Of a stretch of DNA of 41,923 nucleotides, positions 2,796 to 38,531 are shown one piece after another. Position 1 is the first letter of the stretch, and every line of letters starts with the position of its first letter. Made by a program: the position numbers and the translations under genes. Below the pieces are notes generated by a model. That model did no database searches, was not told the origin of the DNA, and saw only the letters and a program-made list of their open reading frames with translations. Source of the stretch: a virus (lineage: Duplodnaviria > Heunggongvirae > Uroviricota > Caudoviricetes). The DNA lies in the IMG/VR virus record IMGVR_UViG_2630968543_000002; one strand, 5' to 3'.

Positions 2796-3818
2796 TTACT
2801 CGAATTCTGTACGCATATCGTTAAGCGTCATCATGAATTTTTGGTGATATTCATCACCGAGCTTTTCAGCCATGGTGTTAATTTCATTTTCAGCGCGCTT
2901 GAACATCGTTTTTGCATCTTCAGCAGATGGATCCAGGCTATTAAGTATCGCGATGATATATTCTCGAGCTTCTTCTCGTTCTGAATCTGAAATTGGCGAT
3001 AGGTGTTGACGCTCATCGTCAACTACGGAATATTCACCAGTGATAACAGCTGCGTTATCTTGGCTAAGTCCAGCTTCAGCGCGCTCATCCATAACAACAG
3101 CCTTCTGCATCTCAATAGAAACAGGAAGATATTTGAACAGTCGGCGAATTACTGTTTTTTTAGCCATCTCATCGAAGTGATCAACCCATGGGCCACTGCT
3201 ACCGGCTTTGCTCAGTGCACGAACTTTCTCAACGTCTGCCCGGCTCATAACTTCAAATTGGACTCCACCATCTTTCAGTCGTGCAACGGCGTAAACGTGC
3301 GTTAATTCTCCGCGGTCACCTGTTTCGCAAGGTAAATGCTCGAGCGTTTCTTCCAGGCCGTATGAGTAGCTGAATTTGTCGTTTGTATGTACGGTACGAG
3401 CCGAGATACTCAGGATCTGCCCAGAGCGGCGGGCAAGGTCAATCATTCCGCGATAGCCGATAATCAGCTGTGCTTCTGTAGATACGGTTTCCCATCTTCC
3501 ATTTACTTTCTGGCGTTTGTCGAACGGTATCAGGTAAGCGTGTCCAAGAGCTCCACCTGGTTCAAGACCCAATTGGGCACATTGCATAATTGCCCCCAGG
3601 AAGCTGGCTTGGTCGCATGATGCAAGTTTTGGAACCTTTCGGATCTCTGTGGTTGCTATGCGCGCCAGACGGTCTGCTGTCATGTGCTTTGGAAGTGCCA
3701 AAGCCATCTGGGCTTTTATTTTTGGGTCTGCCAGAAGTCCGGCCAGAGTTGTTGGTTTCTCATTATGATGTGCAACTTGGTTACCGGTAGCCGCTGCCTT
3801 AAGTGCATTGATAGACAT
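2796..3818 (-). CDS. recT: RecT-family single-strand annealing recombinase
   Basis: 340-aa ORF with strong RecT signature (RIATTEIRKVP...LGLEPG...GHAYLIPF...QLIIGYRGMIDLARRSGQI...THVYAVARLKDGG...FEVM...GPW...EMAKKT.IRRLFKYLPVSIE). Confidence 0.9.
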   Translation of the reverse strand: MSINALKAAATGNQVAHHNEKPTTLAGLLADPKIKAQMALALPKHMTADRLARIATTEIRKVPKLASCDQASFLGAIMQCAQLGLEPGGALGHAYLIPFDKRQKVNGRWETVSTEAQLIIGYRGMIDLARRSGQILSISARTVHTNDKFSYSYGLEETLEHLPCETGDRGELTHVYAVARLKDGGVQFEVMSRADVEKVRALSKAGSSGPWVDHFDEMAKKTVIRRLFKYLPVSIEMQKAVVMDERAEAGLSQDNAAVITGEYSVVDDERQHLSPISDSEREEAREYIIAILNSLDPSAEDAKTMFKRAENEINTMAEKLGDEYHQKFMMTLNDMRTEFE

Positions 3819-5331: not shown

Positions 5332-5916
5332 TTATTGTTTATTTTTTTCGTTCTGGTTGATGACAAATTCAATGTAACTTTCGATCTTTGCTTTCTCGGT
5401 TTCGGGTAACAATGCGTAGCGCGAGCGGTCATAGTTGATGGTCGCAGGGTCGTGCGGGTGAATCAGTAATTCATAGCCGTGACGCCCGAATGCGGATGCA
5501 ACATTCTCCAGGGTGGAAATGGAAACGCTGACCTCATTGTTTAACAGGCGGCTGATTGTTACCTGGGCGACGCCGGATGCGCGGTGAAGTTTTCCCTGTG
5601 TTGAAAGGTCGCGGCTTTCGCTCATCCAGCGTTCCAGGTTGTGAGCCGCCAGCTGACCAATGTCGCTTGGGCCGACAGGCTGAAAACCTTCCTGAGAAAG
5701 CGAGCGATCGATATCAAGCCAGTTACGGGGTTTATTGGCGGCAGCTTCAATTTTTCGCGCAACCTGGTCGCCGATAACCTTCTTGCCAAGAGCCCAGCGG
5801 TTTACCAGATTTGCCTGAGTTCCAAGTTTTTCTGCCATCCGCGTCTGAACACCATTGAATTCACGGTCGATCAAGTCGTTGAGATTTTGCCTGCGGACGT
5901 CCTGGATACTTTTCAT
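5332..5916 (-). CDS. Prophage repressor with two tandem HTH domains (CI analogue); no S24 peptidase domain evident
   Basis: 194-aa ORF with two HTH-like segments (QTRMAEKLGTQANLVNRWALGKK and GVAQVTISRLLNNEVSVSISTLENVA); divergent from the Cro-like gene across an operator-rich spacer. Confidence 0.75.
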   Translation of the reverse strand: MKSIQDVRRQNLNDLIDREFNGVQTRMAEKLGTQANLVNRWALGKKVIGDQVARKIEAAANKPRNWLDIDRSLSQEGFQPVGPSDIGQLAAHNLERWMSESRDLSTQGKLHRASGVAQVTISRLLNNEVSVSISTLENVASAFGRHGYELLIHPHDPATINYDRSRYALLPETEKAKIESYIEFVINQNEKNKQ

Positions 5917-5971: not shown

Positions 5972-6034
5972 TTACCCAACAGGTAAATGCACCTCATAGG
6001 TAACTATCCTTGATTTTTGTTACCTTATGGGTGA
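5972..6034. promoter_or_regulatory. Right operator region (OR-like) between repressor and cro: one perfect site (5972..5986) and two degenerate sites (5989..6003 GCACC-N5-GGTAA; 6020..6034 TTACC-N5-GGTGA)
   Basis: Direct reading; the third site lies between a TTGATT -35 (6011..6016) and a GAATAT -10 (6034..6039) of the putative rightward promoter. Confidence 0.65.
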
Positions 6035-6070: not shown

Positions 6071-6301
6071 ATGAGCGATAACGGACATTTCGATTTCAAA
6101 AAGCACTGGCTTGCACTTACTCCGGATGAGCGTGAAGCCTTCGCACAGGAAGCCGGAACGACGAGTCACTATATCCAGACTCACTTAACAGGTAAGCGCA
6201 AAATGCCAGGTAAGGTATTGATGAATGGGCTTTTTAAAGCCTGTAAAACAAGACAATGGCTGCGCTCAAAAGCAGAACTGGCATACTTCTTCTACTCATG
6301 A
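6071..6301 (+). CDS. Cro-like small DNA-binding protein
   Basis: 76-aa ORF divergent from the repressor, followed by a terminator; putative HTH segment EAFAQEAGTTSHYIQTHLTGKRKMP. Confidence 0.65.
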   Translation: MSDNGHFDFKKHWLALTPDEREAFAQEAGTTSHYIQTHLTGKRKMPGKVLMNGLFKACKTRQWLRSKAELAYFFYS

Positions 6302-15490: not shown

Positions 15491-15653
15491 GAACTGGAAG
15501 CAATGAGTTATGCCTTCCGTGGCTGTACGGGTTTACAGCATGAAGTCATCGCAATGGCGTCCTGCTGTAAAAAGGGCGGTGATAGTCCTTCAAGGGAAAC
15601 CATCACCGCCAAGCACCTGGAACTTCTGGCATCACGGTCCTTAGGCGTGATTC

Positions 15654-16052: not shown

Positions 16053-16067
16053 TTACCTGAAAGGTAA
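16053..16067. promoter_or_regulatory. Perfect operator palindrome ATTACC-TGAAA-GGTAAT upstream of the portal operon; TATGTGGTT motif 44 bp downstream (16111..16119)
   Basis: Direct reading. Confidence 0.55.
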
Positions 16068-29661: not shown

Positions 29662-32136
29662 ATGAGACAGGAATGTATACAAGCGGTCCAGCAGGCGGCG
29701 CAGCGCACGTTAACGGCGCGAGAAATACAGAACATTGAAGACCGCATTTATCGAAATATGCGCTCCATTGCTCGTGATGACCCGATGTCGTGGAGACAAC
29801 TTTCCGAATCAGAGCGGCTATATCGTGCAGCACAATTGGCATCTGAAGAATTACAGCGAGAAGCGGCATTAAAGAAACGTCGTGTGGCCCTCACTATATC
29901 CGCACGTCAGAGATTGGATAAATTTATCAATAGCTATCAAGGGGCTGATGGGAAACTTGGCGCTCTTAACCGTACTATTGCTTTTAATGCAGACGGTAAA
30001 TCGAATTTCCTCTCTGTTGAGTCCAGAACAAAAGCCACTCGTGATTATGCATTGAGTCAATTGCAAGAGGCATTTGAAGCAGTTGATCCTCGCTTTTTTG
30101 GCCTGTTTGAAGATGAAGCTGGCGTGCGTGACCTGGTATATGAAATGCGAGGGCAAAATACTGGCAATGCTAAAGCAAGAAAAGGTGCTAAGGCGTGGAG
30201 AGAAGTGACAGATCTACTGCGCCGCCGGTTTAATGATGCTGGTGGGGACATTGGCTATCTCGAAAACTGGGGAATCCCTCAACATCATTCTATGGAAAAG
30301 GTTGGGGCGGTATCAAAGGATAAGTGGGTTAGCGATGTTATAGGTAAGCTGGATCGCAAATATTATATCCGAGCCGATGGACAACTGATGAACGATTCCG
30401 AGTTGTCTGCATTTCTTGGAGAGGCTTATAACACGATCGCTACTGGTGGGCTGAATAAGCTTACTGATACCGGAATGCGAATTTCAGGCGCACGTGCTAA
30501 CCGTGGTAATACATCACGACAGATACATTTCAAAGATGCAGATTCCTATCTGCAATATCAGCAACTTTATGGCGATCGCTCTCTATGGGAAATCATGGTC
30601 GGTCACCTGGAAGGTATCAGTAAAGATATTGCACTGGTGGAAACATATGGCCCAAACCCCGATCATGTTTTCCGCTCTCTTCTTGATCAGGTGAAGGCAG
30701 AAACGGCAACAGCTAACCCGAGTAAAACCGGTAAAGTCGAGCGGCTGGCGAACAATACAGAGAATCTGTACAACTTTATTTCCGGAAAGACACAGCCTGT
30801 AGCGAATCCGCACATCGCGCGATGGTCTGACAATATCCGCAACTGGCTGGTTGCCAGCAGACTCGGATCCGCGTTGCTGTCATCGTTCTCTGATCTTGGA
30901 ACCATGTATCTGTCTGCGAAGGTGACCAACCTTCCAATGAACCAGTTATTCCGCAACCAGCTTGAAGCTATGGACCCAACGAACCGTACAGAACTTGCGC
31001 GGGCGCGCCGCGCTGGTCTGGCGATGGAATCTCTACTTGGCAGCGTTAACCGCTGGGCGATGGATAATATGGGGCCGTCTGTGTCTCGTTGGGCTGCAAC
31101 GGCGGTAATGCGTGCCAGTGGGCTTACAGCATGGTCAGATGCGCACAAGCGCGCCTATGGCGTAACCATGATGGGAAGCTTGGGAGAAGTAGTGTCACGG
31201 ACACCAGACCTTCGTAGCCTCGATGATTCTGATTTTCGCATCCTGAAAAGCAAAGGGATTACTGACACAGACTGGAGCGTATGGAAGCTGGCGCAACAGG
31301 AGGACTGGGGGAACGGCAATAATACGATGCTGACACCGGAAAGCATTATGCGTATCCCTGATTCAGCAGTTAAACATCTTGGTGAGCCTGAACGCGTGAA
31401 ATTTGAGGCAATGCGTAAACTGCTCGGTGCCATAACTGAAGAAGTTGATATGGCTGTTATTACACCGGGAGCACGTGAGCAACTGATAACCGGTTCTGGT
31501 ATTCAGCGTGGAACATGGAAAGGTGAATTAACGAGAAGTGTTTTCCTGTTTAAATCGTTCCCTATCTCGGTGGTTATGCGTCACTGGTCACGCGCTATGG
31601 GTATGCCGTCTGCTGGTGGGCGTGCGGCATATATTGCGACGTTTATTGCCAGTACGACCATTCTTGGCGCTTTGTCGCAGCAACTTAACGACCTTGCGTC
31701 TGGTCGTAATCCTCGCGAGATGACAGGAGAAGATGCTGCTAAATTTTGGCTTGGTGCTCTACTGAAAGGTGGTGGTCTTGGCCTTTACGGTGACTTTTTA
31801 TTGTCAGATCACACTAGGTACGGAAGCGGCGCGCTGGCGTCGATGCTTGGCCCGGTAGCTGGTCTGGTTGATGACGTAGTGAAGATTGCTCAGGGCATAC
31901 CGTTAAATGCTGTGGAAGGGAAGAGTGAGCAGACTGGTGGTGATCTGGTTAAGCTGGGGAAAGGTCTGATGCCAGGTGCGAATCTCTGGTACTTGAAGGC
32001 GGCTCTCGATCACATGATCTTTAACCAGATGCAGGAGTATTTTTCACCAGGTTATTTGCGTAAAATGGAGCAACGTTCGAAGAAAGAGTTTAACCAGACA
32101 TACTGGTGGCGACCACAGGATGTCACTCCGCAATAA
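29662..32136 (+). CDS. Internal virion / ejection protein (gp16-like, part 2)
   Basis: 824-aa ORF; last gene of the core-protein operon. Confidence 0.55.
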   Translation: MRQECIQAVQQAAQRTLTAREIQNIEDRIYRNMRSIARDDPMSWRQLSESERLYRAAQLASEELQREAALKKRRVALTISARQRLDKFINSYQGADGKLGALNRTIAFNADGKSNFLSVESRTKATRDYALSQLQEAFEAVDPRFFGLFEDEAGVRDLVYEMRGQNTGNAKARKGAKAWREVTDLLRRRFNDAGGDIGYLENWGIPQHHSMEKVGAVSKDKWVSDVIGKLDRKYYIRADGQLMNDSELSAFLGEAYNTIATGGLNKLTDTGMRISGARANRGNTSRQIHFKDADSYLQYQQLYGDRSLWEIMVGHLEGISKDIALVETYGPNPDHVFRSLLDQVKAETATANPSKTGKVERLANNTENLYNFISGKTQPVANPHIARWSDNIRNWLVASRLGSALLSSFSDLGTMYLSAKVTNLPMNQLFRNQLEAMDPTNRTELARARRAGLAMESLLGSVNRWAMDNMGPSVSRWAATAVMRASGLTAWSDAHKRAYGVTMMGSLGEVVSRTPDLRSLDDSDFRILKSKGITDTDWSVWKLAQQEDWGNGNNTMLTPESIMRIPDSAVKHLGEPERVKFEAMRKLLGAITEEVDMAVITPGAREQLITGSGIQRGTWKGELTRSVFLFKSFPISVVMRHWSRAMGMPSAGGRAAYIATFIASTTILGALSQQLNDLASGRNPREMTGEDAAKFWLGALLKGGGLGLYGDFLLSDHTRYGSGALASMLGPVAGLVDDVVKIAQGIPLNAVEGKSEQTGGDLVKLGKGLMPGANLWYLKAALDHMIFNQMQEYFSPGYLRKMEQRSKKEFNQTYWWRPQDVTPQ

Positions 32137-32145
32137 GGATGAGAA

Positions 32146-32286
32146 ATGATTGCTTTTATTCTTGTTGTGTTTGCGCTTGTTGCACTTGGCGTTATGAACC
32201 GTAAATGTATCATTGACGATGGCGAATTTGCTGTTGCAGTTATTTTGATATTATCTGGTGTAGCAGGGTACATAGGCTTGTCATAA
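32146..32286 (+). CDS. Small hydrophobic peptide (46 aa, two predicted membrane helices); not in the ORF track
   Basis: Hand translation MIAFILVVFALVALGVMNRKCIIDDGEFAVAVILILSGVAGYIGLS; AAGGATGAG 5 nt upstream; followed by palindrome and terminator. Confidence 0.35.
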   Translation: MIAFILVVFALVALGVMNRKCIIDDGEFAVAVILILSGVAGYIGLS

Positions 32287-32370: not shown

Positions 32371-32391
32371 AAAAAAGCCCGCGGCGCGGGC
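32371..32391 (-). terminator. Rho-independent terminator for the minus-strand two-gene operon
   Basis: GCCCGC-GGC-GCGGGC hairpin followed on the minus strand by six U (plus A-run 32371..32376). Confidence 0.6.
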
Positions 32392-32831
32392 TATTCTTCT
32401 TCATCATAAAAAAGCGGATTGTCGTTTCCATCTGATGAAAGGAAAGGTATGTGTTCTCTTGAAAATCCAACAACGACAATTTCATTATCATTTTTTGCAT
32501 AATGAATGCATTCATTAGAATGCATTCCGCCGGGGTTGAAATTTAAGTTAATGGTATAATTCTTAAATGTGTTTGGATACCATGTTGGCCCACAATGATA
32601 ATGCCAATAATTCTCTTGCTCATAATTGTCTGAGCCGGGAATTTTATCATGGTTATCATCAACCCACGATGGCTTGTTTTTTCCAACAAGCGCCCTTCCA
32701 TTGGCAACATCTTCTAAAAACCTTTGTATGATTTTTATTTCATCGTCAGTAAGGAAAGGTCCGTCTACAGCGAAAGGGGTGTTGCTTTCCCCATTTAGAA
32801 AACTATTAGATATTCTAATGTTAAACTTCAA
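32391..32831 (-). CDS. Hypothetical protein (146 aa), acidic C-terminus, no recognisable domain; second gene of the accessory operon
   Basis: TTG start with AGGAG 6 nt upstream, 20 nt after the stop of the small upstream gene. Confidence 0.5.
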   Translation of the reverse strand: MKFNIRISNSFLNGESNTPFAVDGPFLTDDEIKIIQRFLEDVANGRALVGKNKPSWVDDNHDKIPGSDNYEQENYWHYHCGPTWYPNTFKNYTINLNFNPGGMHSNECIHYAKNDNEIVVVGFSREHIPFLSSDGNDNPLFYDEEE

Positions 32832-32851
32832 GACAAACTCCTAATGTGCTT

Positions 32852-33019
32852 CTATTTGGAGCGAAATGCCGCCTTGAAGTCGCTGAAAGATGTTCCTGTC
32901 TGGTAAACCATATCCTTGTCGCGCTCTTTGCTTGCGCGGCCAAGCATAACTTTTCCAATGACATCCCAGCATTGCTTGGCTTGTTCATTGTGCTGAGTAC
33001 GATTTTTCAACGCTGTCAT
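32852..33019 (-). CDS. Small hypothetical protein (55 aa); first gene of the accessory operon; not in the ORF track
   Basis: Hand translation MTALKNRTQHNEQAKQCWDVIGKVMLGRASKERDKDMVYQTGTSFSDFKAAFRSK; GGAGG 6 nt upstream. Confidence 0.5.
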   Translation of the reverse strand: MTALKNRTQHNEQAKQCWDVIGKVMLGRASKERDKDMVYQTGTSFSDFKAAFRSK

Positions 33020-33031
33020 ATCGCGCCTCCT

Positions 33032-33075
33032 TTACCTTTAAGGTAATAGTACGCTATTCACCCCCAGTCTGCAAT
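33032..33075 (-). promoter_or_regulatory. Sigma70-like promoter (-35 TTGCAG, 17-bp spacer, -10 TACTAT) with a perfect operator TTACC-TTAAA-GGTAA (33032..33046) overlapping the -10/+1
   Basis: Direct reading of the minus strand. Confidence 0.6.
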
Positions 33076-33119
33076 CTGTACAGAATTATTTAAAGGCACA
33101 TCCCTGTGCCGCCGTTCCG

Positions 33120-33812
33120 TCAGAAAAATCCTGCTTTATCGTTGATGTACTCCGCGTGGGTCTCGATATCACGCAGGCATTTGCTCACACCGACGATGTA
33201 GCAGAACATGGTGGTCAGCTCCGCCGCCGCGCCCGATACGTCGTGCCCGTCTTCCTGTAACTGGTTCAGCAGATTCATCAGCAGTGAGTTCTCCGTCAGG
33301 CCGAGAACACCAGACGGCGAGTGAATCAGACTGCGGTAGCCGGGCTTCAGTGGGGCGCTGTAGGTTTTGTTCTCTATCTTCATTGCCTGCATCACTGCTG
33401 ACGCCGTGGCGTTGGCAACCTGGTCGGCAACCATCTTTATGCGTTCTTCCTGCGGGAGCGAGTTTTTAATGTAGCTTCCGGTGCGGCGGATCTGAGGAAG
33501 AACCTCACCTGTAACCCATTCAAGAAATCTGAATGCTCTCGTTCCCTCTGTCATTGCCTCTTTGCAACGCAGAATAAGGATGTAGAGACCTGATTCTGAA
33601 ACGATGGATAGTTCTTGTATTCCACCAGGGGTCTGTATTGAATGCAGCCCCTTTTTGTTCCAGCCTTTTTTATCAAGTTTTCTCGCTTGTGTAACATCAA
33701 TATTCAAAGCATTGCACACATCTTTGGTGACAAACCAAGGTTCTCCGTCAATCATGAACATACGGATCTGGCAGGATGACTCAAAGGAAAAGATGGAAGG
33801 TTTGGTATTCAT
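33120..33812 (-). CDS. Bro-N domain protein / putative antirepressor (Ant-like)
   Basis: N-terminal Bro-N signature (IFSFESSCQIRMFMIDGEPWFVTKDVCNALNI); AAGGTGA 5 nt upstream of ATG 33812 (ORF opens at 33857 with TTG); C-terminal domain paralogous to gene 34959..35216. Confidence 0.75.
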   Translation of the reverse strand: MNTKPSIFSFESSCQIRMFMIDGEPWFVTKDVCNALNIDVTQARKLDKKGWNKKGLHSIQTPGGIQELSIVSESGLYILILRCKEAMTEGTRAFRFLEWVTGEVLPQIRRTGSYIKNSLPQEERIKMVADQVANATASAVMQAMKIENKTYSAPLKPGYRSLIHSPSGVLGLTENSLLMNLLNQLQEDGHDVSGAAAELTTMFCYIVGVSKCLRDIETHAEYINDKAGFF

Positions 33813-33966
33813 GGCGATCACCTTTGTAGTTAGGTTAATCACCACCGCTGAGACCAATCAGATGGTGGTGAACTGTGCAGAGTTGGTCTTACCGGCTACA
33901 AAGGAACCCGGCGCACCTTTCGGTGCCCCCACACAGCCCACCATAGAATAGGTGCGCTTTACACAT

Positions 33967-34080
33967 AAAAAAACCGCTTATGCGGCATATGTGCCTCTGT
34001 AGTAATCCGGGAGACCAATCCCGGCACTGGATTTTGCCAGTGCCCGATTACTATGGCACAAGAGGAGTGCGATGTAAATT
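33967..34080 (-). ncRNA. Candidate structured leader or small RNA upstream of the Bro-N gene (tentative)
   Basis: Minus-strand promoter (-35 TTGATT, 17-bp spacer, -10 TATCAT) abutting the operator at 34080..34094; two stable hairpins (34007..34024 and 34024..34043) and a short GC stem followed by seven U (33967..33985). Confidence 0.25.
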
Positions 34081-34094
34081 TACCGAAAAGGTAA
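34080..34094. promoter_or_regulatory. Perfect operator palindrome TTACC-GAAAA-GGTAA
   Basis: Direct reading. Confidence 0.55.
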
Positions 34095-34172
34095 TGATAA
34101 GCGCGAAAAAACATTAAAATCAACCGTATTTGGTTGATTGCGTTTAACGCTTGATCACCTGAAAGCAAGATA

Positions 34173-34187
34173 TTACCTTTAAGGTAA
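34173..34187. promoter_or_regulatory. Perfect operator palindrome ATTACC-TTTAA-GGTAAT preceded by AGATAT (-10-like), 21 nt upstream of the 34208 start codon
   Basis: Direct reading; core 15-mer identical to the site at 33032. Confidence 0.55.
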
Positions 34188-34207
34188 TGTTATTGTGAGG
34201 AAAAGCA

Positions 34208-34936
34208 ATGGAAGTTTTCTGGATAGTTGTTGGTGTGGTTGCGGTGATTATTTACGTTATCAACCAGAACAAGACTAAGATCTCTGATCGTACGGTCGTT
34301 AATCAGAACAAAACGATAAAGACCGAAGATGGGGAGATAACGATTAATCGTACACAGGTGATAGAGCACACATCTACTCAGTTTCAAAAAACTGGAGGTA
34401 ACGCTCCTGATATTTCCGTACCTCCTGCTTATGATAGTGCGGTAATCCAGACATATTATAAACAGCAGGAGTTAGCAAAAGAGAGGCAACTGATTCAGCC
34501 AAAGCCGTTTACAGCTGAGCTTCCACCTGGAGTGTCAACGCGTCCGGCATATCATGGAAGATTCCCTGGTGATGACATATCGTCTCAGTCATTTAAAAAA
34601 GCACCTCAGGCAGTATCAGAGCCAGCAAGAATATCTTCTGTATCGCCGCCAAAAGAAGAATCAGCTAACAGAGTTTCAAGCGGTAGCAAGCAGTGCTTGC
34701 GATGCAGAATAAACCTTCCATATGAAAAATTCAGGAAATCGTCAAAAAATCCGGATGGATTGACTAAGTGGTGTGCAAGGTGTCTCGATGGCCCAAAGAA
34801 TACACGTCATATGAAGTGGTGCCCAATTTGTAATGTCCGCAGAAAACGAACCAGCTTTTACCCTAATAATCAAAATGCGGACGGCTTAATGGCATGGTGC
34901 AAAACGTGCTGGGACGAGCACAAAGCGAAACGATAG
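34208..34936 (+). CDS. Membrane-anchored protein with two C-terminal zinc-ribbon-like repeats (unknown function)
   Basis: N-terminal hydrophobic helix (EVFWIVVGVVAVIIYVI); two repeats of C-x2-C-x16-17-DGL-x3-WC-x2-C; GAGG Shine-Dalgarno. Confidence 0.65.
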   Translation: MEVFWIVVGVVAVIIYVINQNKTKISDRTVVNQNKTIKTEDGEITINRTQVIEHTSTQFQKTGGNAPDISVPPAYDSAVIQTYYKQQELAKERQLIQPKPFTAELPPGVSTRPAYHGRFPGDDISSQSFKKAPQAVSEPARISSVSPPKEESANRVSSGSKQCLRCRINLPYEKFRKSSKNPDGLTKWCARCLDGPKNTRHMKWCPICNVRRKRTSFYPNNQNADGLMAWCKTCWDEHKAKR

Positions 34937-34952
34937 GCCGCTCTTGCGGCCT
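34937..34952. terminator. Hairpin between convergent genes (possible bidirectional terminator)
   Basis: GGCCGC-TCTT-GCGGCC followed by TTTAAATTT. Confidence 0.45.
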
Positions 34953-34958
34953 TTAAAT

Positions 34959-35216
34959 TTACCTGGTTTGTTTTCGTAATTGTTCGGCACAATAGTCGAG
35001 ATGTGTTTGCAGATCCTGCATAGACATCTGTGAGCTGGTGACGTAGTTAATCAGTGCAGTCAGTTCGGCAAGTGGGCCATCGACATTAAATCCATCCTTA
35101 TTGAGATCCCGGAGTAATTTCATCAAGTGCGATCCCTCCACCAGTGACCTGACGCCTCCCGGCGTGTGAATCCTTTCGGTAAATCCGTCTTCCAGTGGAT
35201 AGTGATACTGCTGCAT
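34959..35216 (-). CDS. Hypothetical protein (85 aa), paralogue of the C-terminal domain of the Bro-N protein
   Basis: ATG at 35216 with GGAG upstream; TERIHTPGGVRSLVEGSHLMKLLRDLNKDGFNVDGPLAELT aligns with RSLIHSPSGVLGLTENSLLMNLLNQLQEDGHDVSGAAAELT. Confidence 0.55.
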   Translation of the reverse strand: MQQYHYPLEDGFTERIHTPGGVRSLVEGSHLMKLLRDLNKDGFNVDGPLAELTALINYVTSSQMSMQDLQTHLDYCAEQLRKQTR

Positions 35217-35292
35217 CTTATCTTCTCCATGCAATAACTGTATATTTATACAGTAGCAAATAATTTGTTTGCTATCCAGCACGTTTTGCAAA

Positions 35293-35307
35293 TTACCTGA
35301 AAGGTAA
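35293..35307. promoter_or_regulatory. Perfect operator palindrome ATTACC-TGAAA-GGTAAT between divergent gene 34959..35216 and the tailspike; TATGTGGTT motif and a GGTAAT half-site follow at 35339..35358
   Basis: Direct reading. Confidence 0.55.
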
Positions 35308-35411
35308 TATCTATTAGTATTCACAGTATTTCTATCCATATGTGGTTTTTCAGGTAATAGAATAACCAGATATGCGGCGCAACGGGTGCTGCGACTATCT
35401 GGAGATTTAAC

Positions 35412-38400
35412 ATGACGGTCTCAACCGAAGTTGACCACAACGAATACACAGGTAACGGCGTTACGACATCGTTTCCGTATACTTTTCGAATTTTCAGAAA
35501 ATCCGACCTGGTTGTTCAGGTGTCTGACCTGAACGGGAACGTAACAGAATTGGTTCTGGATACCGGTTATACGGTAACTGGGGCGGGCACTTATAGTGGC
35601 GGTTCTGTGGTTCTTCCGTCGCCGCTTGCTACTGGATGGAGAATTACGATAGATCGTGTGCTTGATGTAGTGCAGGAGACAGACCTTCGCAATCAGGGAA
35701 AGTTTTTCCCCGAAGTGCATGAAGATGCCTTTGACTACCTGACGATGCTGATCCAGCAATGTTTTGGATGGTTCAGACGTGCATTGATGAAACCATCTTT
35801 GCTTGCAAAATATTACGATGCAAAGCAAAACAGAATTTCTAACCTTGCAGATCCATCACTTGAACAGGACGCTGTAAATAATCGCTCAATGCGTAATTAT
35901 GTCGATGCTGCAATCGCCGGGGTTGTTGGTGGTTTTGGTTGGTTTATTCAGTATGGTTCTGGGGCAGTATACCGAACGTTCCAGGATAAAATGCGTGATG
36001 CTATTAGCCCCAAAGATTTTGGAGCTGTTGGTGATGGTATAAATGACGATTCTACTGCAATAAGCGCGTGCCTTGAAGCCTCATCTCCAGGTTATAAAAT
36101 TGACGGATTAGGGCTTACTTTTAAAGTATCAACTCTTCCGGATGTCAGCCGATTTAAAAATGCTCGTTTTTTATTTGAGAGAATACCGGGTCAGCCTCTT
36201 TTTTATGCTTCTGAAGATTTTATCCAGGGAGAGTTATTTAAAATTACAGATACACCGTGGTACAACGCCTGGACGCAGGATAAAACGTTTGTATATGACA
36301 ATGTCATCTATGCGCCTTTTATGGCTGGAGACCGCCATGGTGTAAATAACCTCCATGTTGCATGGGTTCGCTCAGGAGATGACGGGAAGACCTGGACAAC
36401 GCCGGAATGGCTTACAGATTTACATGAAAACTATCCCACAGTTAACTATCACTGCATGAGTATGGGGGTTGTCAGAAATCGCCTTTTTGCTGTAATTGAG
36501 ACGCGGACCGTGAGCGGAAATAAACTGCAGGTTGCAGAGTTGTGGGATCGTCCAATGAGTCGCAGCCTTCGCGTTTATGGTGGTATAACGAAAGCAGCAA
36601 ATCAGCAAGTCGCTTATATTCGCATTACTGATCACGGATTATTTGCTGGTGATTTTGTCAACTTCTCAAACTCTGGTGTTACAGGTGTTACCGGGAATAT
36701 GACGGTGACTACTGTTATTGATAAAAATACTTTTACAGTTACGACGCAAAATACTCAGGTTGTGGATCAGAATAACGAGGGTAGATACTGGAGTTTTGGT
36801 ACATCATTTCACTCGTCACCATGGAGAAAAACCAGTCTTGGAACTATTCCTTCTTTTGTTGACGGAAGCACTCCTGTTACTGAGATTCACAGTTTTGCGA
36901 CGATTAGCGATAACAGTTTTGCTGTTGGCTACCATAATGGTGATATTGGTCCACGCGAGCTTGGGATACTCTATTTCTCTGATGCTTTCGGTTCTCCTGG
37001 TAGCTTTGTTCGCAGACGCATACCTGCAGAATATGAGGCGAATGCATCTGAGCCATGTGTAAAATATTATGATGGCATTCTGTATCTGACGACCAGGGGG
37101 ACATTAAGTACTCAACCCGGTAGTTCATTGCACAGAAGCTCTGATTTAGGTGCATCATGGAATTCTCTTCGCTTCCCAAATAATGTTCATCACTCAAACC
37201 TTCCTTTTGCCAAAGTTGGCGATGAGCTGATTATTTTTGGCAGTGAGCGCGCATTTGGTGAGTGGGAAGGAGGAGAACCTGATAACCGTTATGCAGGAAA
37301 TTATCCAAGAACATTTATGACCAGAGTTAACGTCAATGAGTGGAGTCTGGATAATGTAGAGTGGGTTAATGTTACTGATCAGATTTATCAGGGCGGAATA
37401 GTTAACTCTGCGGTTGGTGTTGGTTCAGTTTGTATCAAAGACAACTGGCTGTACTACATTTTCGGTGGGGAAGACTTTCTAAACCCATGGAGCATAGGGG
37501 ATAACAACAGAAAATATCCTTATGTTCACGATGGTCACCCGGCTGATTTGTATTGTTTCAGGGTGAAAATTAAACAGGAAGAATTTGTTTCAAGGGATTT
37601 TGTCTACGGAGCCACTCCTAACAGAACGCTTCCTACTTTTATGTCGACGTCCGGCGTGAGGACGGTTCCTGTACCCGTTGATTTCACAGATGATGTTGCC
37701 GTCCAGTCACTGACTGTCCATGCAGGTACATCAGGACAAGTTCGCGCGGAAGTCAAACTGGAGGGCAATTACGCCATTATTGCGAAGAAAGTACCGTCTG
37801 ATGATGTTACCGCTCAGAGATTAATCGTTAGCGGCGGTGAAACAACGTCTTCAGCAGATGGTGCAATGATAACGTTGCATGGTTCCGGAAGCAGTACTCC
37901 ACGTCGCGCGGTATATAACGCACTCGAACATCTTTTTGAGAACGGAGATGTTAAACCTTATCTTGATAATGTAAATGCTCTTGGTGGTCCGGGAAACAGG
38001 TTCTCGACAGTTTATCTTGGCTCCAATCCTGTGGTTACCAGTGACGGAACATTAAAGACAGAGCCGGTCTCTCCTGACGAAGCATTGCTGGATGCCTGGG
38101 GTGACGTCAGGTATATCGCTTATAAATGGCTGAACGCTGTCGCTATAAAGGGAGAAGAAGGGGCGAGGATACATCATGGTGTAATCGCGCAGCAACTTCG
38201 TGATGTTCTTATTTCTCACGGACTCATGGAAGAAGAAAGCACAACATGCCGCTATGCCTTTCTTTGCTATGACGATTATCCCGCAGTATATGATGACGTC
38301 ATTACTGGCCAAAGGGAAATTCCGCTGACTGATAATGACGGGAGCATCATTGTTGATGAGGATGATAATCCAGTGATGGTAATGGAAGACATCATTGAGC

Positions 38401-38531
38401 GCGTTGAAATAACGCCAGCAGGATCTAGATGGGGGGTCAGACCTGATCTCTTATTCTATATCGAGGCAGCATGGCAGCGCAGAGAAATGGATAAGATAAA
38501 AGAGCGGATTCAGTCTCTGGAAGAACGTTAA
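35412..38531 (+). CDS. Tailspike / receptor-binding protein with predicted beta-helix and C-terminal chaperone-like domain
   Basis: 1039-aa ORF; conserved N-terminal particle-binding region (TGNGVTTSFPYTFRIF), pectate-lyase-like start (ISPKDFGAVGDGINDDSTAI); GGAG Shine-Dalgarno. Confidence 0.8.
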   Translation: MTVSTEVDHNEYTGNGVTTSFPYTFRIFRKSDLVVQVSDLNGNVTELVLDTGYTVTGAGTYSGGSVVLPSPLATGWRITIDRVLDVVQETDLRNQGKFFPEVHEDAFDYLTMLIQQCFGWFRRALMKPSLLAKYYDAKQNRISNLADPSLEQDAVNNRSMRNYVDAAIAGVVGGFGWFIQYGSGAVYRTFQDKMRDAISPKDFGAVGDGINDDSTAISACLEASSPGYKIDGLGLTFKVSTLPDVSRFKNARFLFERIPGQPLFYASEDFIQGELFKITDTPWYNAWTQDKTFVYDNVIYAPFMAGDRHGVNNLHVAWVRSGDDGKTWTTPEWLTDLHENYPTVNYHCMSMGVVRNRLFAVIETRTVSGNKLQVAELWDRPMSRSLRVYGGITKAANQQVAYIRITDHGLFAGDFVNFSNSGVTGVTGNMTVTTVIDKNTFTVTTQNTQVVDQNNEGRYWSFGTSFHSSPWRKTSLGTIPSFVDGSTPVTEIHSFATISDNSFAVGYHNGDIGPRELGILYFSDAFGSPGSFVRRRIPAEYEANASEPCVKYYDGILYLTTRGTLSTQPGSSLHRSSDLGASWNSLRFPNNVHHSNLPFAKVGDELIIFGSERAFGEWEGGEPDNRYAGNYPRTFMTRVNVNEWSLDNVEWVNVTDQIYQGGIVNSAVGVGSVCIKDNWLYYIFGGEDFLNPWSIGDNNRKYPYVHDGHPADLYCFRVKIKQEEFVSRDFVYGATPNRTLPTFMSTSGVRTVPVPVDFTDDVAVQSLTVHAGTSGQVRAEVKLEGNYAIIAKKVPSDDVTAQRLIVSGGETTSSADGAMITLHGSGSSTPRRAVYNALEHLFENGDVKPYLDNVNALGGPGNRFSTVYLGSNPVVTSDGTLKTEPVSPDEALLDAWGDVRYIAYKWLNAVAIKGEEGARIHHGVIAQQLRDVLISHGLMEEESTTCRYAFLCYDDYPAVYDDVITGQREIPLTDNDGSIIVDEDDNPVMVMEDIIERVEITPAGSRWGVRPDLLFYIEAAWQRREMDKIKERIQSLEER

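Follow-up and report, generated by a model that had tools for sequence, protein, structure and literature searches.

A small antirepressor gene beside the tailspike gene of an epsilon15-like Escherichia coli phage, and a Bro-N fusion with a homologous module

The 85-residue gene and its upstream spacer

The window (the whole stretch of viral DNA that was analysed, 41,923 nucleotides) comes from an epsilon15-like (Uetakevirus) temperate E. coli phage, with phiV10, TL-2011b, EC.W1-9, and ZX5 as the closest relatives. An open reading frame encoding 85 amino acids is present on the minus strand at 34959..35216. It lies directly upstream of the tailspike gene, in the same place as the ant gene of Salmonella phage SPC32H. 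As an earlier note on this DNA had described, it diverges from the tailspike gene; the spacer measures 195 bp. The features of the gene and its surroundings are as follows.

34959..35216 (stop codon included), minus strand: ant, small antirepressor of 85 aa, assigned by homology to SPC32H Ant, PHROG 450, and synteny
35225..35228, minus strand: Shine-Dalgarno sequence GGAG, 8 nt 5' of the ATG at 35216, read from the sequence and kept in five phages
35236..35255, unstranded: predicted LexA (SOS) box, TACTGTATAAATATACAGTT on the ant-sense strand, 18/20 identical to the E. coli consensus
35250..35278, minus strand: candidate ant promoter TGGATA-17 nt-TACTGT, with a putative -10 overlapping the LexA box
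35293..35307, unstranded: Rep-type palindrome TTACCTGAAAGGTAA in the ant-tailspike spacer, a predicted operator
35412..38531, plus strand: endosialidase tailspike gene (End_N_terminal, beta-propeller, beta-barrel, End_tail_spike, Peptidase_S74 chaperone)
34935..34952, unstranded: GC-rich hairpin between ant and the convergent 242-aa ORF, from a terminator scan of the plus strand only

The 85-aa product is ~87% identical (72 of 83 residues, 86.7%) to the Ant protein of SPC32H, which consists of 86 aa (PDB 5D50; Kim and Ryu 2013; Kim et al. 2016). Its residues 2-84 align with residues 3-85 of chain E of 5D50, deposited as 'Anti-repressor protein' (E 2e-46), and PHROG 450 matches it with an E value of 2.6e-47. 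In the GenBank record of SPC32H the syntenic gene is annotated ant and stands directly before tsp. The Pfam search returned no domain above threshold for the 85-aa protein; both Bro-N (PF02498) and P22_AR_N were absent. A length of 85 aa, a properly spaced Shine-Dalgarno sequence, and no further domain correspond to the stand-alone Ant format. A Pfam match to DUF724 (17 bits, with a cut-off of 38) and an NCBIfam match to UpsF were discarded as noise.

Judged by sequence and gene order, the ORF is the orthologue of SPC32H Ant, the already characterised small antirepressor of epsilon15-like phages, and the gene at 34959..35216 is already known, not new. RefSeq E. coli genomes and the majority of phage records list it as 'hypothetical protein', and PHROG 450 carries the label 'unknown function'. 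The finding is a corrective one, as the product of this 'hypothetical' gene is near-identical to a protein whose structure has been solved and which is known as the SOS trigger of prophage induction.

Many database entries (P0003, P0013, and P0020 among them, one cluster counting 833 members) give a version of 126 or 127 aa, at 34959..35339 on the minus strand. The 126-aa reading from the ATG at 35339 was rejected because the extension would run across the LexA box and the other regulatory sites, and because its equivalent in epsilon15 holds two in-frame stops. The longer calls are a recurrent start-codon mis-annotation, in which the added part covers the LexA box and the promoter.

The predicted LexA box has 2 mismatches to the 20-nt E. 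coli consensus and ends 9 nt before the ant Shine-Dalgarno sequence. It is the sole match to this consensus in the ~42-kb window when up to 3 mismatches are allowed (0.01 expected by chance), and a pattern search also found the CTGT-N8-ACAG core within it. The same core pattern at 15523 and 20065 was dismissed, the spacers there being GC-rich and the sites failing the 20-nt consensus search. In an alignment of five phages the box is kept in SPC32H, epsilon15, phiV10, and TL-2011b. The ant spacers of SPC32H and SPC32N differ by a single base, which lies inside the homologous LexA box (ACAG to AAAG); according to Kim and Ryu (2013), this mutation in SPC32N reportedly renders Ant constitutive. 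In respect to the candidate ant promoter, both hexamers fall within blocks that are invariant across the five phages; they are weak, and a simple sigma-70 consensus scan did not call them. With the promoter placed there, the LexA box would overlap it.

The palindrome at 35293..35307 had been taken for a shared operator region in the earlier note, and this assignment gains from three observations: the motif is over-represented in the window, it is kept at this place in four relatives, and the equivalent epsilon15 site is annotated as protein_bind 'repressor'. The palindrome stands just upstream of the candidate ant -35 and also between the two hexamers of a weak candidate for a rightward promoter. 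The hairpin on the other side of ant has a 7-bp stem with 6 GC pairs, as given by the plus-strand terminator scan, and epsilon15 has an annotated terminator at the equivalent place. From its position, the hairpin presumably acts bidirectionally and would serve ant on the minus strand as well. The tailspike gene itself has an endosialidase grafted onto an epsilon15-type N-terminus, and the phage is presumably specific for the K1 (polysialic acid) capsule.

The Bro-N fusion, its RNA leader, and the accessory insertion

Relative to SPC32H and epsilon15, the ~32.4-34.9 kb region of the window is an insertion holding ORFs of 55 aa and 146 aa, the Bro-N gene, and an ORF of 242 aa with zinc ribbons. 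A PADLOC search gave no match for any gene of the insertion.

32391..33019, minus strand: two-gene cassette (55 aa and 146 aa), PHROG 5954, no Pfam or PADLOC match
33032..33046 and 34173..34187, unstranded: further Rep-type palindromes near the Bro-N gene, from the palindrome scan
33120..33812, minus strand: Bro-N::Ant-like fusion of 230 aa, Pfam Bro-N at residues 16-106 (E 9.9e-14)
33138..33368, minus strand: Ant-like C-terminal domain of the fusion, residues 149-225, matching 5D50_E (E 2.6e-13)
33821..33857, minus strand: predicted C4 target sites on the Bro-N mRNA, CUACAAAGG at 33821..33829 and UUGGUCU at 33851..33857
33861..33948, minus strand: C4-type antisense RNA, Rfam RF01695 (78.6 bits, gathering score 45)
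33967..34056, minus strand: isrK-like RNA, or a1-b1 target element, Rfam RF01394 (74.7 bits, gathering score 50)
34080..34094, unstranded: Rep-type palindrome overlapping candidate promoters that read toward isrK, C4, and Bro-N
34208..34936, plus strand: 242-aa ORF (PHROG 6762), hydrophobic at its N-terminus, two CxxC zinc-ribbon repeats at its C-terminus

The earlier note had aligned the 85-aa product by eye with the C-terminal domain of the Bro-N protein, at about 40% identity over roughly 60 residues. BLASTP reproduces this similarity as 30 identities in 74 ungapped positions (41%), on residues 149-222 of the Bro-N protein, the noted length having been slightly low; with a pairwise E value of 2e-15, the alignment is significant. 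The paralogy is borne out by a common PHROG (450, which matches residues 147-228 of the Bro-N protein with E 6.5e-37) and by a common PDB chain, 5D50_E (E 2e-46 for the free protein and 2.6e-13 for the fusion). This chain belongs to a Rep-Ant complex, which agrees with the proposal of a target-binding domain: the module common to the two proteins is the repressor-targeting one. The Bro-N protein is additionally matched by PHROG 130 and PHROG 1760, both 'anti-repressor'. A single-sequence AF2 model of the whole Bro-N protein reached a pLDDT of 35 and was discarded.

Upstream of the Bro-N gene, the C4 loop CCUUUGUAG (C4 positions 45-53) is perfectly complementary, over 9 nt, to the segment that covers the Bro-N Shine-Dalgarno sequence. 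The AGACCAA stretch of C4 (positions 60-66) can pair over 7 nt with UUGGUCU, which is present both downstream (33851..33857) and upstream (34012..34018) of C4. The isrK-like element, placed at 33967..34043 by the 74.7-bit match, has a terminator-like hairpin of its own (33986..33973); its match to RF03163 (39.9 bits) is below the gathering score of 46.7. In the 48 nt between C4 and the Bro-N ATG there is no ORF of at least 30 aa on the minus strand. TL-2011b, phiV10, and ZX5 have the isrK/C4 leader in front of their Bro-N genes; SPC32H and epsilon15, which lack the Bro-N gene, lack the leader as well. As an observation in its own right, the leader at 33861..34056 on the minus strand places a P1-immI-like circuit in an epsilon15-like phage.

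The immI region of P1 and P7 (c4 antisense RNA, icd, ant) and the isrK-orf45-anrP locus of Gifsy-1 resemble the Bro-N locus and not the 85-aa gene. In P1 immI, Ant is under the control of C1, C4 RNA, and Icd (PMC8201110), and the layout of the Gifsy-1 locus is described in PMC4825925. The likeness consists in the isrK-like a1/b1 element, the C4 loops complementary to a ribosome-binding site, and a repressor operator over the promoter. Unlike in P1 and Gifsy-1, no icd- or orf45-like ORF was seen between C4 and the Bro-N gene, the C4 RNA would pair directly with the Bro-N Shine-Dalgarno sequence, and the C-terminal domain of the antirepressor is of the SPC32H-Ant type. P22 immI (mnt-arc-ant with sar RNA) is alike in its place between the genes for ejection proteins and the tailspike gene, and differs in that arc, mnt, and sar are absent from the window. 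By analogy with P1 and P22, the Bro-N protein is most likely a second antirepressor, of the immI type.

In respect to the remaining genes of the insertion, a Rep-type palindrome lies directly over the ribosome-binding site of the first gene of the 32391..33019 cassette. In TL-2011b, the position of the 55-aa/146-aa cassette is taken by a toxin pair of the YafO family, for which reason the cassette is possibly a toxin-antitoxin or defence moron. The 242-aa ORF, with weak matches to endonuclease VII and Stc1, is situated between ant and the isrK leader, and it is absent from phiV10 and ZX5.

The repressor, its probable operators, and the spread of the Ant module

The presumed target of Ant is encoded elsewhere in the window.

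5332..5916, minus strand: rep, repressor of 194 aa, presumed Ant target, assigned by homology to 5D50 chain A
5972..6034, unstranded: three Rep-type palindromes forming an OR-like cluster between rep and the rightward early genes
5198, 5260, 5972, 5989, 6020, 6181, 6357, 8303, 8365, 12845, 16053, 30603, 33032, 34080, 34173, and 35293, unstranded: the 16 Rep-type palindromes of the palindrome scan

Residues 1-190 of Rep match chain A of 5D50, 'Repressor', with an E value of 4e-42. The protein has HTH_3 and an N-terminal YdaS-like HTH, and the domain search found no S24 peptidase domain in it; this predicted architecture, with no domain for self-cleavage, agrees with a repressor whose induction depends on an antirepressor. 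Rep is 100% identical to that of phiV10 and 98-100% identical in all E. coli relatives, the Bro-N fusion travelling alongside. Between the window phage and SPC32H, Rep is only 41.8% identical versus 86.7% for Ant, and the binding of Ant to Rep in the window phage is extrapolated from SPC32H across this considerable divergence of the target. The gap between the two values could mean that Ant sees a conserved patch on a fast-evolving Rep, or that the two genes are separately exchanged mosaic modules. Homologues of Ant and Rep share one set of phages (35 and 36 records, respectively), with equal counts for Salmonella, Klebsiella, and Enterobacter.

The TTACC-N5-GGTAA palindrome occurs 16 times in the window at up to 2 mismatches, where 0.86 occurrences are expected. 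The sites are concentrated near rep and in intergenic stretches that resemble promoters: two are downstream of rep, four belong to the ant region (33032, 34080, 34173, and 35293), and others include 8303, 8365, and 16053. The sites at 16053 and 35293 are identical in sequence. In the epsilon15 record these palindromes carry a repressor-binding annotation, and the 16 sites probably make up all the Rep operators of the phage; those at 6181, 12845, and 30603, with 2 mismatches and inside listed ORFs, may be chance matches.

In a profile search of 1.84 billion representative proteins, only 66 matched the Ant module at E <=0.001; some are proteins of ~80-95 aa, and in the others, 150-319 aa long, the module forms the C-terminal domain. 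In the fusions it is preceded by Bro-N, AntA, pRha, or ORF6N, and TL-2011b adds P22_AR_N. The module is shuffled onto five different N-terminal domains of antirepressor type, which may be new to a modest degree; no paper linking SPC32H Ant to Bro-N was found in the literature searched, which is not proof of novelty. Two sequence subtypes of the module can be distinguished, differing mainly in the last helix. One stand-alone protein, P0135, is a natural chimera with the N-terminal half of the Ant subtype and the C-terminal helix of the subtype found in the Bro-N C-terminal domain, which suggests recombination between the paralogues. Two 95-aa proteins from Klebsiella/Raoultella (P0126 and P0130) are closer to the Bro-N C-terminal domain and were considered as a second free subtype. 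They were rejected as such: in their contigs the resemblance to the Bro-N protein extends past the called start, back to residue 102, and they border on an unrelated island, so that truncated fusions are the probable reading. TL-2011b carries, at 31060..32244 of its record, a third Ant-like domain, fused to P22_AR_N and preceded by an Arc-like repressor gene and a sar antisense RNA; this single genome has three differently controlled antirepressors with one C-terminal module.

The free gene is found without the fusion as well. In SPC32H, epsilon15, and all 12 of 12 Salmonella records ant is present, the Bro-N paralogue is absent, and the module occurs as a single copy; in SPC32H and epsilon15 ant directly follows a gene for a small membrane protein. 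The function of Ant must therefore be independent of the Bro-N protein. In phiV10 the Bro-N::Ant-like gene (2856..3511, minus strand) has a frameshift inside the Ant-like domain, with residues 1-180 in one frame and 186-230 in another, and ant is intact; the frameshift is due either to decay of the domain or to a sequencing error. Taken together, the distribution, the insertion, and the phiV10 frameshift argue that the stand-alone ant is a conserved autonomous element and the Bro-N protein a derived form, to judge by the sequences a secondary fusion of the Ant module. The relationship is thus the reverse of the earlier framing: the free ant is the core and the Bro-N protein one of several fusions.

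Proposed induction circuit and alternative readings

We take the ORF to be ant, the LexA-controlled small antirepressor of epsilon15-like (Uetakevirus) temperate phages and their core SOS switch that inactivates Rep, with a probability of about 0.88. In a lysogen, host LexA bound to the 35236..35255 box, overlapping the ant promoter, would silence ant, and Rep, devoid of a self-cleaving peptidase domain, would shut the lytic genes through the TTACC-N5-GGTAA operators. Upon DNA damage, activated RecA would bring about the self-cleavage of LexA and the transcription of ant. An Ant tetramer would then bind two Rep dimers and disrupt the DNA-binding Rep tetramer, and with Rep off its operators the prophage would enter lytic growth. 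The Bro-N fusion, two genes away from ant, would provide another input, with its promoter under a Rep-type operator followed by the isrK/C4 leader, the loop of which can pair with the Bro-N ribosome-binding site.

The window phage itself shows the homology and synteny, a LexA box, a rep gene, and the RNA elements, and the binding of Ant to Rep and the control of ant by LexA are taken from the work on SPC32H. PDB 5D50 is the Rep-Ant complex, in which SPC32H Ant was crystallised as a tetramer bound to Rep. PMC9638917 describes SPC32H Ant as a tetramer whose binding to Rep frees Rep from DNA, and PMC7380047, citing Kim and Ryu 2013, states that Ant is produced upon LexA self-cleavage and that the repressor is inhibited through protein-protein contact. 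We infer the same action of Ant on the Rep of the window phage, and likewise the role of the Bro-N fusion. The two phages are alike in the genus-level architecture of the genome, the tailspike-adjacent ant, the conserved LexA box, and the homologous, peptidase-less Rep. They differ in that the window phage infects E. coli, in the divergence of Rep given above, and in the extra fused Ant module, which only the window phage has.

There is also a likeness to Tum of coliphage 186 and to GfoA and GfhA of the Gifsy phages, where, according to PMC7380047, a small protein released from LexA control binds an uncleaved repressor. In Pfam, PHROGs, and NCBIfam, compared by family descriptions only, ant did not match any family described as Tum- or Gifsy-type. 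The SPC32H authors, for their part, are said to have described SPC32H Ant as structurally distinct.

In the earlier note the free domain was proposed as a competitor or dominant-negative regulator of the Bro-N antirepressor, which it would block by occupying the target without inactivating it, or by poisoning the oligomer. Such a role has in its favour the homologous module of the two proteins (41% identity, E 2e-15), the distance of only 1.1 kb between the genes, and the oligomeric state of SPC32H Ant, by which mixed oligomers are conceivable. It conflicts, however, with the behaviour of the 87% identical orthologue, which alone is an active antirepressor, and with the retention of ant throughout the relatives, among them the 12 Salmonella records, SPC32H, and epsilon15, these latter being without a Bro-N paralogue. 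It is also the Bro-N C-terminal domain, and not ant, that is broken by the phiV10 frameshift, and the two genes are under unrelated controls (a LexA box for ant and an isrK/C4 leader for the Bro-N gene). We consider this idea very improbable. An unlikely but milder variant keeps the action of Ant as described and adds cross-talk of the paralogues, through mixed tetramers or competition for the Rep surface, by which immI and SOS inputs would be integrated. The residues invariant in the whole family are retained in both subtypes, ant and the Bro-N gene both adjoin Rep-type palindromes, and the P0135 chimera suggests that the halves of the subtypes are structurally compatible; on the other hand, the C-terminal helix is strongly different between the subtypes, and the Bro-N paralogue is dispensable in many relatives.

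It can also be asked whether the Bro-N::Ant-like protein, and possibly Ant too, targets the repressors of other resident prophages of Uetakevirus type, for anti-immunity or cross-induction. Ant is far better conserved than Rep between clades (87% versus 42%), as would fit a broad target specificity, and the depositors of phiV10 named the Bro-N protein 'putative anti-immunity protein'. Such action in trans has been described for Gifsy antirepressors and P22 Ant, and cross-talk of antirepressors between prophages is documented (PMC7380047). Nevertheless, Rep is near-identical (98-100%) in all E. coli relatives with the fusion travelling along, so that targeting of the phage's own repressor is the simpler reading, and we regard an action on foreign repressors as quite doubtful.

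Returning to Ant as the SOS-triggered inactivator of Rep, we tentatively consider that the SPC32H-type Ant domain may be deployed two or three times in a single phage genome, each time under a different sensor, with all copies converging on one repressor, perhaps as mixed tetramers. The sensors may be LexA/SOS for the free Ant, the Rep-operator-gated isrK/C4 leader for the Bro-N fusion, and Arc/sar for the P22_AR_N fusion of TL-2011b. If true, the repressor would integrate several induction signals, and with the further fusions to AntA, pRha, and ORF6N the Ant domain would constitute an undescribed family of C-terminal 'warheads' without a Pfam entry. A single phage can hold several differently wired copies of the Ant module, which makes for a tractable setting in which to study how one repressor integrates multiple signals; the remaining interest of the locus, modest in extent, lies in this multi-input wiring and in the shuffling of the module.

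Among 5,426 complete E. coli genomes, 542 contain part or all of the stretch that joins the two copies, from the Bro-N gene to ant (32800..35420), and 73 contain 80% or more of it. The E. coli hosts of this stretch include K1-capsule strains.
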